Source: Thermoplasmatota archaeon (GTDB taxonomy: Archaea > Thermoplasmatota > E2 > DHVEG-1 > B18-G2). From it: a DNA stretch of 22,117 nt. The notes beneath the pieces were generated by a model that saw nothing but the letters and a program-made list of their open reading frames with translations, made no database searches and was not told the DNA's origin. This document shows positions 1,842 through 7,905 of the stretch, one piece after another (position 1 is the first letter of the stretch; every line of letters begins with the position of its first letter). The DNA lies in NCBI GenBank assembly GCA_029259115.1, contig JAPDJO010000094.1, positions 1 to 22,117 of the forward strand, read 5' to 3'. A program made the position numbers and the translations under genes.

Positions 1842-3484
1842 TTTAACATCGGCGCCTTCAGATCACTTTTCTTAATAAGCTCGATAGCTTCTTCATAACC
1901 AGCATCCGCATGCCTTATTACTCCAAGTCCAGGATCAGCCTTGAAAACTCTCTTTATCCTCTCATCAGTTTCTTTGCTTCCATCACAGACAACAATCATT
2001 CCGGCATGCGTTGATAATCCAATACCAACTCCTCCACCGTTGTGTATCGCTACCAGATCTGCGCCTGCTGCACAATTTAGTAGAGCATTTAGCAAAGGCC
2101 AATCCGCGATAGCATCACTTCCATCTTTCATTCCTTCCGTTTCCCTGAATGGAGAAGCAACGCTACCTGAATCTAAATGATCTCTAGATATAGATATTGG
2201 TCCTATCTCTCCTTCCCTTACCATTCTATTTATCTCTAGAGCGAATTTCTCTCTTTCTCCATATCCGAGCCAGCATACTCTAGCTGGTAAACCCTCCCAT
2301 GGAAGATACTTCTCTGCTAGAGTAATCCAATTCCTCAAGACATCATCCTCTGGAAAGAGTTCAAGAACTTTCTTGTCAGTCTTTATGATATCTTCAGGAT
2401 TTCCAGTTAGTGCAATCCATCTAAAGGGTCCTCTTCCAATGGCGAGCATGGGCCTTACATATGCTATGACAAATCCCGGATAGCTAAAGGCTTCCTCGAA
2501 TCCAGCTTTCTTTGCCTGACCCCTGAGATTATTTCCATAATCAAAAACAACAGATCCTCTCTTCTGGAACTTTACCATCGCCTTGCAGTGCTCCTTCATG
2601 CTCTTCATAGATAACTCTATGTACTTCTTTGGATCACTCCTCCTAAGCTCATAGGCTTCTTCAACATTATCTCCATAGTAACCAGCCGGAACATAGCCAT
2701 TTAGTTCATCATGAGCAGAAGTTTGATCTGTAACAACATCTGGCTTGAAACCTTTTTCAACAAGATAAGGATGGGTATCTGCACAATTACCAACAACAGC
2801 TATCGATTTTGGCTCTCCCTCCTCTTTAGCCTGCTCCGCTATCTCTATAGCCTCGTCGATATCTTCTACAACCATATCACAGAATCCAGCCTTGATCCTC
2901 CTCTCTATCCTCTTTCTATCGCACTCCACAGCTATACATATACCTTGATTCATCTTTATCGCTAATGGCTGAGCTCCTCCCATCCCACCTAATCCGCCTG
3001 TTAGAACTATCTTTCCCTTCAGGTTACTCTTAAAATGCTTTCTTGCGCATGCCGCAAACGTTTCGTATGTACCTTGTATGATTCCCTGAGTACCTATATA
3101 GCACCACGATCCAGCAGTCATCTGACCATACATTATCAGTCCTTTCCTCTCTAGCTCATGGAACACCTCCCAATTGCTCCACTGCGGAACCAGGTTTGCA
3201 TTTGCTATTAGTACTCTAGGAGCATTTTTCCATGTCTTGAATATAGCTACGGGTTTTCCAGATTGAACTATGAGAGTTTCATCATCTTCTAAATTCTTCA
3301 AGGCATCAACTATGGCATAAAAGCACTCCCAATCTCTAGCTGCCTTGCCAGAACCTCCGTAGATTATGAGCTCGTCTGGTTTCTCTGCATTTTCAAGATT
3401 ATTTTCTAGCATTCTTAAAATTCCTTCCTGTCTCCAGCTTTTACATCTTAATTCATATCCTCTGGCAGCTTTTATCTTCGGCAT
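1838..3484 (-). CDS. hutU: Urocanate hydratase
   Basis: [86 protein letters not shown] at 3484 (MPKIKAARG) preferred over the TTG at 3496. Confidence 0.97.
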
Positions 3485-3512
3485 AAAAATCAACAAAAAA
3501 TCTTGTAATCTC

Positions 3513-3526
3513 TACTTAAACTTTGT
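3513..3526 (-). promoter_or_regulatory. Putative BRE/TATA promoter of hutUH
   Basis: Minus strand reads ACAAAG TTTAAGTA, about 29 nt upstream of the hutU ATG. Confidence 0.5.
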
Positions 3527-3550
3527 GAGATCGAACATCAAGATATTGAA

Positions 3551-3567
3551 TCATAGTAAAACTATGA
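3551..3567. promoter_or_regulatory. Perfect palindrome, candidate transcription-factor site upstream of hutU
   Basis: TCATAGT-AAA-ACTATGA (7-bp arms, 3-nt spacer), about 30 nt upstream of the hutU TATA. Confidence 0.4.
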
Positions 3568-3622
3568 AAATTTGTTTATTTTTGCAAGAAAATCAAAAAT
3601 TCATACTTTGAACTTTATACAT

Positions 3623-3640
3623 AAGGAAAGGAAAAAGAAG
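3623..3640 (-). terminator. Oligo-pyrimidine/U-rich terminator-like tract after the hairpin
   Basis: Minus strand CTTCTTTTTCCTTTCCTT immediately 3' of the stem; archaeal intrinsic terminators are U-rich tracts. Confidence 0.45.
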
Positions 3641-3715
3641 TTGGAAGGAGGCTGGCCTCAAACTAGGAGGGGATGGGATGCACTCAAACAACTACCAGCC
3701 CTGTTCCTTCCAATT
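3627..3715 (-). ncRNA. Candidate small RNA: long hairpin with a C-rich anti-SD loop and U-rich 3' tail
   Basis: Stems 3641-3649/3705-3713 (9 bp) and 3650-3655/3695-3700 (6 bp) with a 4-nt bulge; 53% GC (39/73) inside very AT-rich flanks; BRE/TATA about 22 nt upstream; CUUCUUUUUCCUUU directly after the stem. Confidence 0.65.
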
Positions 3716-3734
3716 AGTAAATAGTGAAATTCTA

Positions 3735-3749
3735 TATATAAAGCTTTCG
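3735..3749 (-). promoter_or_regulatory. Consensus archaeal BRE + TATA promoter for the candidate sRNA
   Basis: Minus strand CGAAAGC TTTATATA; the expected start site (~3712-3716) coincides with the 5' end of the hairpin. Confidence 0.7.
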
Positions 3750-3765
3750 TTTCGATTTTTGGATT

Positions 3766-3981
3766 TTAAACAACAGATATACTCACGACGTTACTGCCCC
3801 TTATTATCACTGTACCAAGCTTCTTCCTCGTATCTTCTATTCTCTCCTCAGTATCTTCGAGAACAAGATTCATATGTTCATCGTAGCCAGAAAGTTTTCC
3901 TTCCAAGATTCTACCATCCTTGAGCAGGAGAATCGTTCTTTGATTGATAGATTTCTGGAGTACGTCTAGAGGTAGTGCCAT
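3766..3981 (-). CDS. Sm-like archaeal protein (SmAP1/LSm), RNA-binding
   Basis: 71 aa from ATG 3981; PLDVL...LKDGR...GKL.GYDEHMNLVL.D.EE (Sm1 motif) and LGTVIIRGSNVVSIS (Sm2 motif); TATA-like TTTAAGAA about 23 nt upstream. Confidence 0.95.
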   Translation of the reverse strand: MALPLDVLQKSINQRTILLLKDGRILEGKLSGYDEHMNLVLEDTEERIEDTRKKLGTVIIRGSNVVSISVV

Positions 3982-4012
3982 AAGAGAAGGATACAATAAC
4001 CCCTTCTTAAAT

Positions 4013-4516
4013 TTAATCCATGTAGAGCCTTTTTACCCTGCTTTCTCCGTCAATCTTTTCTATAATCTCTGCAACCTCCTTGGGAACCAGAGATCTCCAA
4101 TCCTTACCTTCTGCTATCAGTTTTCTAATGATCTTGCCATGACAATTTTTTCCTCCGAAGAGAGGTATCCTCTTAACCTTGTATCCTTTCTCCTTGAATA
4201 GTCTTAGAGTGACTGGGTTTCTAGCTAAAACTATATCAAACTTGGGAACCATCGATTCGACATGCTCAACCCATTTTGAATAGTTGTGGATATCGGGTAT
4301 AAAATATATCTCGATGTTTTTTATTCCAAGATTCTCGAGAGTTTTTCTTATCATCATCTCTCTTTCTTCTGCAGTAAAAGGATTCTCTTTTGTATAAGAG
4401 TATTGTGACGAGCCTATACCAATAACGATCTTATCAAATTCCTTAGAGAATCTCTTTATGGCTTCAAGATGTCCGTTATGGAAAGGTTGAAATCTACCAA
4501 TAAATAGAGCTATCAT
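4013..4516 (-). CDS. nadM: Nicotinamide-mononucleotide adenylyltransferase (archaeal NadM type)
   Basis: FIGRFQPFHNGH (HxGH), IGIGSSQ.S.T.ENPFTAEER, WVEHV, WRSLVP. ATG at 4516 preceded by a GTGAT SD-like motif overlapping the lon stop. Confidence 0.9.
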   Translation of the reverse strand: MIALFIGRFQPFHNGHLEAIKRFSKEFDKIVIGIGSSQYSYTKENPFTAEEREMMIRKTLENLGIKNIEIYFIPDIHNYSKWVEHVESMVPKFDIVLARNPVTLRLFKEKGYKVKRIPLFGGKNCHGKIIRKLIAEGKDWRSLVPKEVAEIIEKIDGESRVKRLYMD

Positions 4517-6588: not shown

Positions 6589-7905
6589 ATGGACATCAAC
6601 AAGATTTTAGATGATTTCAAGGAAAACAACGTCAAGTTTGTGAGACCAATATTTGTAGACATTCTAGGTAGGATGCTGGATTTTACAGTACCGATAGATG
6701 AGTTTGAAGGACTAGTAAAGGATGGAAAAGGATTTGATGGATCATCGGTGGAGGGTTTTGCAAGAATCGAAGAGAGCGATCTTAGATTTGTTCCTGACTT
6801 AGATACTTTGAGAATTCTTCCTTGGGAATACAAAGGTCTAGAAAAGAATTGGAGAGAGGCTATCGTTTTTGGATACATCTACGACTCTTCCGGAAATATT
6901 TATGAGGGGGATACGAGGGCTCTACTGAAGAAAACTATTGAGAAACATAAAGACATAGGAACAATGAAATGTGGAGTAGAGATGGAATTCTTTATTTTTG
7001 AAAATGATAAGAATCCCTGTCACACGGACTCAGGAGGATATTTTAGATCTGGATTGTATGGAGAGATAAGGAAGGAGGCACAGCTTCTCTTGAATGAGAT
7101 GGGAATAAAAACAGAGTTTGATCACCATGAAGTCGCCCAGAGTCAGCATGAGATAGATATCACATATTCAGATGCCCTCAGAATGGCTGATTATGTTATA
7201 TTAACAAAATACATTGTAAAGAAGATTGCAAGAGAGCATGGCGTGTATGCATCGTTCATGCCTAAACCTTTAGACAACATAAATGGGAATGGGATGCACA
7301 CACATATATCTCTGTGGAAGGATGGAAAAAATATATTTTTTGATGAGAAGAAAAAAGGGATTAGCGAGATAGCCAGATCATATATAGCTGGACTGATGAA
7401 GTACGGGAAAGAGATACAGGCTGGATTAAATCAATGGATAAACTCCTACAAGAGATTAACTCCTGGTTACGAAGCTCCGACTTATCTCGTCTGGGGAACA
7501 AAGAATAGATCAGCCTATATAAGGGTACCTGAGTATCAGAAGGGAAAGGAAAATGCGACAAGGATAGAACTAAGAAGTCCTGATCCAGCATGCAATCCAT
7601 ATCTAGCTTTCTCTCTCATCCATTCTGCTGGTATACAAGGTATAAAAGAGAAGTTGGACCCTCCCAGTCCTGTAGAAATCGATGTTTTTCATATGCCAGA
7701 GTCTGAAAGGAGAAAAATGAAGATAGATGAGCTTTCTCCCTCCTTAGAGAAGGCGCTTGAATATTTTATGAACAGCGAGTTGGTTAAGAAAAGCTTGACC
7801 GAACATATATTCAGAAAGTTCATCGAAAACAAAACAATAGAGTGCAGGAACTTCAACAGATCTGTTACAGATTATGAGATAAAACACTACTTCGGTATAC
7901 TTTGA
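6589..7905 (+). CDS. glnA: Glutamine synthetase type I
   Basis: 438 aa; [36 protein letters not shown]...[42 protein letters not shown]. Confidence 0.93.

Follow-up and report, generated by a model that had tools for sequence, protein, structure and literature searches.

A small RNA family of the Thermoplasmatota complementary to the ftsZ leader, and a candidate antisense regulator of archaeal cell division

C-rich single-stranded motifs, such as those of RsaE/RoxS in the Firmicutes (RF01820), can pair with the G-rich Shine-Dalgarno (SD) regions of messenger RNAs. In Escherichia coli, the 53-nt trans-encoded RNA DicF pairs with the ftsZ mRNA at or near its ribosome-binding site (RBS) and represses translation, and repression is weaker without the Sm-fold chaperone Hfq (PMC5069750). 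A second E. coli RNA, StfZ, is a cis-antisense RNA of the ftsA-ftsZ region and has been proposed to tune FtsZ levels (PMC9628754). In the archaeon Methanosarcina mazei, a trans-encoded bicistronic mRNA target has been reported for the small RNA (sRNA) sRNA162 (PMC3510493). In the haloarchaea, cdrS, a small gene encoding a ribbon-helix-helix (RHH) protein, lies directly upstream of ftsZ2 and is co-transcribed with it in Halobacterium salinarum; the pair is syntenic in many archaeal clades (PMC7439475). The subject of this report is an element on the minus strand of a 22,117-nt stretch of DNA from a Thermoplasmatota archaeon (assembly GCA_029259115.1, contig JAPDJO010000094.1), referred to here as the window, in which it lies between an Sm/LSm gene and hutU. 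All coordinates given without a contig or locus name are those of the window, and the element is read on the minus strand, which is also the strand of the Sm gene. The element is very probably an independent sRNA gene, and its family, as judged from sequence comparisons, spans much of the archaeal phylum. Pairing with the leader that separates a cdrS-like RHH gene from ftsZ is probably the best explanation of its conserved blocks, and we consider it fairly likely, if a little less so, that the RNA regulates the translation of ftsZ in trans by antisense pairing, much as DicF does.

The likeness to DicF (RF00039) is that of a small trans-encoded RNA predicted to pair beside the ftsZ RBS. The two RNAs have no homology of sequence or structure, as there is no Rfam match; DicF is prophage-borne and restricted to some enterobacteria, whereas the present RNA is chromosomal and widespread in an archaeal phylum, and would pair in two blocks flanking a leader hairpin, in an intercistronic region. 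Like StfZ (PMC9628754), it has complementarity to sequence that precedes ftsZ. StfZ is encoded on the strand opposite its target, whereas the present RNA comes from a separate locus, on another contig, so its complementarity must be maintained by selection. From sRNA162 it differs in sequence and in target, and the present family spans a phylum and has a putative cell-division target. To our knowledge, sRNA162 is known from one genus, and very few archaeal sRNA-target pairs are conserved beyond a genus. RsaE/RoxS differs in domain of life and in architecture, and one of the two pairing blocks described below, block A, is not SD-like. The predicted target leader lies within the same kind of gene pair as that of cdrS-ftsZ2, with an RHH_8/DUF5388 gene followed by a Tubulin/FtsZ_C gene, but no sRNA or structured intergenic leader is known to us for the haloarchaeal pair, and in the main text of that study the words ‘intergenic’ and ‘UTR’ occur 0 times (PMC7439475). 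The literature searched, with supplements outside its scope, contained no archaeal sRNA acting on ftsZ and no full-text mention of the motif. The sRNA family is absent from Rfam 15, and the complementarity to the ftsZ leader is new here.

The original prediction was that of a complete, independently promoted sRNA gene. It began with a B recognition element (BRE) and a TATA box, and both are present as described: CGAAAGC (3743-3749) is followed by TTTATATA (3735-3742), 21 nt upstream of the first hairpin base, where about 22 nt had been given. The gene body (3638-3713; 79.4 bits with the covariance model R1 described below) has a GC content of 0.53, in agreement with the GC-rich island of 53% that had been noted, and the predicted RNA has its 5' end near 3713 and its 3' end inside a T-run. 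The outer stem consists of TTGGAAGGA (3705-3713) and TCCTTCCAA (3641-3649), and the inner stem of GGCTGG (3695-3700) and CCAGCC (3650-3655). Both stems, the 4-nt bulge between them (3704-3701, the position given as ACAG) and the 39-nt region enclosed by the inner stem lie where they had been placed, and the fold proposed is the minimum-free-energy structure. The enclosed region is largely single-stranded. Block A, CTGGTAGTTG (3689-3698), and block B, GAGTGCATCCCATCCCCTCCTA (3664-3685), are the two sequences complementary to the ftsZ leader. The hairpin is followed by a T-rich tail, CTTCTTTTTCCTTTCCTT (3623-3640), with five T residues at 3636-3632 that form a putative archaeal oligo-T terminator.

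This architecture is conserved. A DNA search recovered the central ~70 nt, at E ≤ 2.8e-11, from 58 of the 61 genomes of the same order; the three genomes without a match are 59–87% complete. The aligned loci have in common a BRE/TATA about 22 nt upstream, the two stems and the downstream T-run, with a BRE equivalent (CGAAAAG/CGAAAT) kept at the same place in the loci of relatives and T-runs trailing the 3' stem in most of them. The T-rich tract between the stems varies by +2, +3, +4 or +8 nt among relatives, and since such changes are not confined to multiples of three, the element is non-coding on either strand. At the sequence level, it therefore has the marks of a transcription unit: a conserved BRE/TATA upstream, a T-run downstream and no reading frame. 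R1, built from 56 distinct copies (alignment A1), detected one significant copy in the window's own genome, one to five copies in each of 138 of the 151 genomes of a class sample, and copies in 108 of the 151 genomes of a phylum sample, several of these genomes being single-contig. An exact scan of public genomes for the 20-nt core returned at least 119 stretches, 80 of which bear titles that are nearly all those of uncultured Thermoplasmata or Thermoplasmatota metagenome-assembled genomes (MAGs). One stretch with the exact core, L099, is titled as a Candidatus Saccharibacteria MAG and is most likely a mis-binned archaeal contig.

The pattern of change within the family is that of a structured RNA. 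The loop GAGTGCATCCCATCCC is identical in copies from 21 distant genomes, and the first 16 nt of block B are identical in 21 copies belonging to other families of the phylum; in both stems, by contrast, the changes are compensatory. Throughout the order, copies are preceded at much the same distance by A/T-rich TATA-like boxes, which are also at the right distance in most of the 21 distant copies, and T-runs flank even the copies of distant families. Across 82 sequences, in an alignment fitted to the model and thus leaning towards structure, 96.6% of cells are paired and 11 of 12 pairs have changed on both sides; none of 500 shuffles reached these values, and slid controls paired at 39–64%. 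All five modelled pairs of the outer helix (98.3% of cells paired) and six of the seven pairs of the inner helix have changed on both sides. The T:G pairs found in CCGGCC variants fit the Sm-gene strand only, as RNA. With the BRE/TATA, hairpin and T-run kept together in relatives, and with stems that covary, the proposal of a complete sRNA gene with its own promoter is upheld.

No known RNA class was found for the element. Rfam 15 gave no match in the window at the gathering score, and thus no known family at the element; in E-value mode it gave seven chance-level matches (best E 1.4), all far below gathering. The DicF model RF00039 was not among these seven and likewise had no match in the window at the gathering score. 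The RsaE/RoxS model RF01820 scored 17.5 bits (E 1.5; gathering score, 79) over a shifted stretch (3586-3662), and the element is not a member of that family; no Rfam family was found for the distant sRNA copies either. The expected absence of a tRNA held: ARAGORN detected none in the window or in 15 related loci, there was no Rfam tRNA at the element, and a tRNA, a split or permuted tRNA and a tRNA-like structure, for which a cloverleaf fit by eye was tried on both strands, were rejected. In one distant genome a tRNA gene lies ~110 nt from the sRNA copy (L278:906-978, minus strand; Rfam tRNA, 69.2 bits). The C/D boxes RUGAUGA and CUGA are missing from the 73 nt at 3713-3641, as had been claimed, and no Rfam snoRNA model matched. 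Coding on the plus strand was considered for an 81-amino-acid open reading frame (ORF) starting at 3678 after an SD-like AGGAGGGG, and dismissed because the length changes in relatives shift the frame and because the ORF would run antisense through the Sm gene. A dispersed repeat was rejected too, given a single copy in the window's genome and one to five in relatives. A known Rfam family, a dispersed repeat and a lack of conservation or covariation had been named as observations that would tell against an sRNA gene, and the Rfam scans, the copy counts and the searches for conservation and covariation brought up none of them. What best explains the RNA, the complementarity with the ftsZ leader, did not figure in the original prediction.

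Among the matches listed in the exact-core scan, five loci are unlike sRNA genes. In three of these (L040, L055 and L060), and in L080, the core lies antisense between a small RHH gene and an ftsZ-type gene, which it immediately precedes. In the window's genome, another contig carries, in order, an aIF2-beta-like gene, an RHH gene (RHH_8/DUF5388), an 80-nt leader and ftsZ (Tubulin and FtsZ_C domains). The leader sequence (C7:52004-52078) consists of CTAGGAGGGATGGGATGC, a GC-rich hairpin, CAACTACCAG, GGAGGGG and the ATG. CTAGGAGGGATGGGATGC, in the 5' part of the leader (G000:C7:52004-52021), is the complement of block B with one bulged base, and CAACTACCAG (G000:C7:52051-52060), directly 5' of the ftsZ SD, is a perfect 10-nt complement of block A. 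The order of the two blocks is that required by a single antiparallel duplex, with the hairpin looped out. In seed-filtered genome-wide duplex scans with a 36-nt loop query, the ftsZ leader was the best trans site in the 1.4-Mb genome, with an energy of −42.3 kcal/mol in the scan window (runner-up, −41.0) and of −49.3 kcal/mol when centred; none of 500 shuffled leaders (mean −23.5) reached the energy of the leader. The sRNA thus contains a single-stranded seed that is complementary to sequence near the RBS of ftsZ and conserved in relatives. Other partners were considered and rejected. An rRNA or tRNA is not a match for the loop, as in four complete genomes of family f12 an exact 13-nt complement occurs only at the sRNA itself, and the one-mismatch complements in f12 genomes fall within a repeated element or in coding DNA that is unrelated. 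The window also has a 14/15 complement of the loop, in the codons of the conserved NGNGMH motif of its glutamine synthetase gene (7275-7293, plus strand; gene 6589-7905); it was taken as chance, although sRNAs with nitrogen-related targets are known from other archaea.

The leader is itself a conserved RNA element with two hairpins. In an alignment of 55 genomes of the order (A3; the window's leader is G000:C7:52000-52082, or L151:1001-1083), the leaders share a first hairpin with the 10-nt loop ATGGGATGCA, a second hairpin closed by GAAGG/CCTTC, a CTACCAG block, the TAGGAGGAAT SD sequence and the start codon. In its hairpins, 91.8% of cells are paired and seven of 15 pairs have changed on both sides, values matched by none of 500 shuffles. 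The SD and the AUG are mostly unpaired in the folds of three leaders and are predicted to be open. Rfam has no family at the RHH-ftsZ leader. A conserved upstream ORF was rejected, since the frames opened by the two ATGs of the first hairpin are not conserved in length: across the 55 leaders, those from the first ATG extend over 5 to 26 codons or remain open. A second GGGATGG-like motif is present, in many genomes, within the second hairpin's loop. The sRNA may have two landing sites in the leader.

The sRNA and the leader also vary together. In the 51 genomes of the order from which both were recovered, the third base after CTGGTAG in the sRNA (after CTGGTAGTT) and the third base before CTACCA in the leader (before AACTACCA) are variable and would extend the block-A duplex. 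They form G:C in 24 genomes and T:A in 22 and are unpaired in five, and are thus paired in 46 of the 51; all three extension pairs are formed in 42. The final base of block A covaries with the leader throughout the order. For genus g7, a C was predicted in the leaders from the sRNAs before the leaders were retrieved, and this held in 11 of 11 cases. In genome G054, the CTGGTAG of the sRNA faces CTATTAG in the leader, and pairing is kept through two G:U wobbles, which only RNA tolerates.

Complementarity upstream of ftsZ recurs in other lineages, including three further families and reaching 25 nt, with the proviso that related genomes are not independent samples, so that the following counts overstate the evidence. 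In another class, an exact loop complement of at least 8 nt lies no more than 250 nt upstream of ftsZ at 13 of 20 loci, as opposed to 15 of 487 control windows. It is present at all ten loci of family f33, where it covers the apparent SD and start codon, and at three of seven loci of f15, and is found at none of the four loci of f30 and f49; the single f30 genome of the phylum sample has no sRNA by R1 either. In family f12, genome G208 has a 25-nt perfect complement to its own sRNA, which reaches into lineage-specific sequence (controls, at most 9 nt), and G245 has a 13-nt complement (controls, at most 10 nt). A GC-rich MAG contig, L052, has the full 20-nt complement at the 5' end of ftsZ.

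The sequences themselves establish the anatomy of the gene, its structure, the occurrence of the family across the phylum and the partly co-varying complementarity. A discrete RNA species, pairing in the cell, repression in preference to activation and any part played by the Sm protein are inferred from them, and the following model would account for the observations. A non-coding RNA of ~75 nt would be made from its own BRE/TATA, on the strand of the Sm gene, and would end at the oligo-T run. Its two covarying stems would close a mostly single-stranded region of ~40 nt that presents blocks A and B, and these would pair in trans with the intercistronic leader between the cdrS-like RHH gene and ftsZ. 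Block B would pair with the first leader hairpin, both its loop ATGGGATGCA and its G-rich 5' strand, probably starting loop-to-loop, and block A with CAACTACCAG beside the SD, with the second leader hairpin looped out between them. The resulting duplex would occlude or restructure the ribosome-binding region of ftsZ, so that FtsZ synthesis would be lowered and uncoupled from the upstream gene. Activation, or an altered stability of the mRNA, are possible alternative effects.

Several observations weigh against this model. Folding energy is unremarkable, with z-scores of −1.08 for 98 nt (27 of 200 shuffles fold as well) and −1.58 for 73 nt (15 of 200), so the hairpin cannot be called real by thermodynamics and the case for it rests on conservation and covariation. 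When the 52-nt inner region, stem strands included, was the query of a genome-wide scan, the leader came in only about sixth place among distinct sites. Nine of the 51 genomes lack the full set of three extension pairs, and on a quick FtsZ tree the T:A state belongs to one clade of 19 rows plus genome G022; the trans co-variation probably goes back to only one or two evolutionary events. Strong matches to the leader model R2 are confined to the window's order and genome G066; the model has hits in 20 of the 151 phylum genomes, and most of the others are the antisense of sRNA loci. Four of the seven f15 loci have fewer than 8 nt of complementarity, and in the f12 genomes G241 and G249 the complements, of 9 and 8 nt, are no longer than those of their controls (12 and 11 nt, respectively). 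Further partners, whether other mRNAs or a protein, are likely, because the invariant 16-nt loop exceeds the shared complementarity in some lineages. Finally, the available expression data, from three RNA-library runs of one marine-sediment sample that contain the stretch as contigs without strand, show contigs spanning 3300-4198 roughly evenly, with no discrete ends, which may include DNA and are compatible with either the presence or the absence of a discrete transcript. These contigs bridge the Sm gene, the element and hutU. Those of the window itself have a depth of 6–9. A separate 556-nt RNA-library contig (run X2, record 5), with a depth of 51.5, shares only 3674-3703 with the window and then diverges; it is probably the copy of a related organism, and may point to an RNA that is abundant.

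The alternative that survives best, although we consider it unlikely, is that of a global regulator with a C-rich seed, acting in the manner of RsaE/RoxS, in which CCCATCCCCTCCTA would pair with many G-rich SD and start regions and ftsZ would be a single target among many, or a secondary one; it is compatible with the regulation of ftsZ proposed here. In its favour, the loop complements an idealised SD-plus-AUG, other sites that score well in the genome are RBS-like (e.g., C7:34561-34650 at −41.0 and C1:112981-113070 at −37.6), the phylum-wide invariance of the loop is what many simultaneous targets would lead one to expect, and the weak cmscan resemblance to RsaE (17.5 bits) points the same way. 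However, ftsZ is the best site of the genome, block A is not SD-like, yet is complementary to the ftsZ leader and covaries with it, and the 25-nt match of G208 reaches lineage-specific sRNA sequence. Less likely again is a structural or protein-binding RNA, a ribonucleoprotein component or a decoy, possibly with Sm, in which a protein would read the loop and the ftsZ complementarity would be secondary. A loop of 16 nt that is invariant across the phylum, beyond the 8–13 nt of pairing in some lineages, the synteny with Sm in several lineages and the presence of T-rich tracts are in keeping with such a role, which does not predict complementarity upstream of ftsZ in four deep lineages, tracking lineage-specific changes; nor did any analysis point to a protein partner.

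It is very improbable that the shared motif (GGGATGGGATGCA plus CTACCAG) is a double-stranded DNA operator for one factor, for instance the neighbouring RHH protein, present in opposite orientation at the ftsZ leader and the sRNA locus, with the RNA complementarity as a by-product. Identical double-stranded DNA at two loci would give the same pattern, joint G:C to T:A changes included; the leaders have tandem GGGAT-like repeats, some of them in the loop of the second hairpin, and a gene for an RHH regulator adjoins the leader. At the sRNA locus, however, the motif lies inside a hairpin that covaries as RNA and has its own promoter and terminator, and the leader motif is also within covarying RNA hairpins. 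In G054, where the two loci differ at two positions, identity of the DNA is broken and G:U pairing is kept, and the 25-nt match of G208, which enters the 3' stem strand of the sRNA, is long for an operator. The weakest alternative, a cis element that is either the 3'-untranslated region or terminator of the Sm mRNA or the 5' leader or attenuator of hutU, draws on the Sm-element-hutU order on one strand (59 of 101 judged copies among the matches listed, and 25 of 27 copies from relatives) and on the RNA contigs that bridge all three, but is scarcely credible in view of the conserved BRE/TATA between the Sm stop codon and the element, the hutU TATA-like box that comes after the T-run, the 29 of 101 judged copies, among the matches listed, that lack both neighbours on the expected side and carry their own promoters, and the 16 of 21 distant copies that have no Sm gene nearby.

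On the minus strand of the window, the gene order is Lon (6489-4522), a cytidylyltransferase-like gene (4525-4013), Sm/LSm (3996-3766), the element, hutU and hutH. The hutU gene has a TATA-like box of its own, TTTAAGTA (3513-3520), ~29 nt before the ATG at 3484, as had been proposed, and a GTTTAAGTA box recurs downstream of the sRNA in relatives; hutU is thus a separate transcription unit and the element is not a hut leader. The start codon of hutU is probably this ATG, rather than the TTG at 3496 of the ORF listing (window 3484-3520, minus strand), and the distance from the TATA-like box suggests that the predicted hutU mRNA is leaderless or near-leaderless. Neighbours were counted for copies with enough flanking sequence to judge, an Sm gene being scored when it lay 100–520 nt upstream on the same strand. 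In the exact-core scan, among the matches listed, 72 of 101 judged copies have Sm upstream and 59 of these are followed by hutU. For the other 13 copies linked to Sm, the retrieved DNA shows no hutU downstream, which agrees with the view that the element need not belong to hut, and 28 more have neither gene; 29 of the 101 sit elsewhere, with promoters of their own. The best hits of relatives have Sm upstream in 25 of 27 cases, the copies of distant lineages in only five of 21.

Some sRNA copies have other neighbours. Paralogous copies whose promoter differs (GCGAAAAA, one variable base, GTACTTAAA) occur at L070:4503-4751, L031:1181-1441, L032, L062, L085 and L101, and have a conserved ORF of ~85 amino acids ~100 nt downstream, with YT(I/V)EDAIK and then KKYN and GAFIHGLIFA; this ORF had no Pfam hit. 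In nine genomes (G025, G030, G034, G035, G037, G040, G041, G050 and G052), a second sRNA copy lies ~4 kb from a second ftsZ paralogue on the same contig, for example G035:C4:13212-13283 with G035:C4:8156-9118. In family f3, the Sm-sRNA-hutU locus is ~1.5 kb from ftsZ and its leader on one contig (G011:C44:1127-1285 and G011:C44:2794-3885), and the sRNA and its predicted target are thus nearly adjacent there.

The upstream neighbour of the sRNA encodes a 76-amino-acid Sm/LSm protein (3766-3996, minus strand; Pfam LSM, E 2.1e-23), and CTGGTAG is followed, both in the window and among most relatives, by a T-rich tract that ranges from TTGTTTG to TTGTTATTTTGTTAG. In GC-rich relatives (e.g., L064, L082 and L041), this possible U-tract for Sm binding is replaced by non-U sequence. 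The Sm neighbour, the internal T-rich tract and the T-tail would fit an Sm-bound sRNA, the evidence being one of synteny: the link between the sRNA and the Sm gene is purely syntenic, and it does not extend across the phylum. A dependence of the sRNA on the Sm protein is therefore a tentative suggestion that we would not favour at present. More speculative still is a phylum-old cell-division riboregulator that, with Sm as its chaperone, would bind the cdrS-ftsZ leader like a clamp, at two sites, and act as a switch of FtsZ synthesis. If this were true, it would be the first conserved archaeal Sm-sRNA-mRNA pairing, and a deep parallel to Hfq with DicF, and archaeal Sm proteins would gain a defined regulatory client.

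The Thermoplasmatota would thus possess a phylum-wide sRNA family with a specific, sequence-defined candidate target in the ftsZ leader, downstream of a cdrS-like gene. This gives a testable model of post-transcriptional control of archaeal cell division, in which the complementary blocks and the natural compensatory variants pinpoint the bases to mutate and the neighbouring Sm gene is an obvious candidate cofactor. For the annotation of these genomes, which are mostly those of uncultured organisms, the sRNA and the ftsZ leader with its two hairpins are two further RNA motifs.

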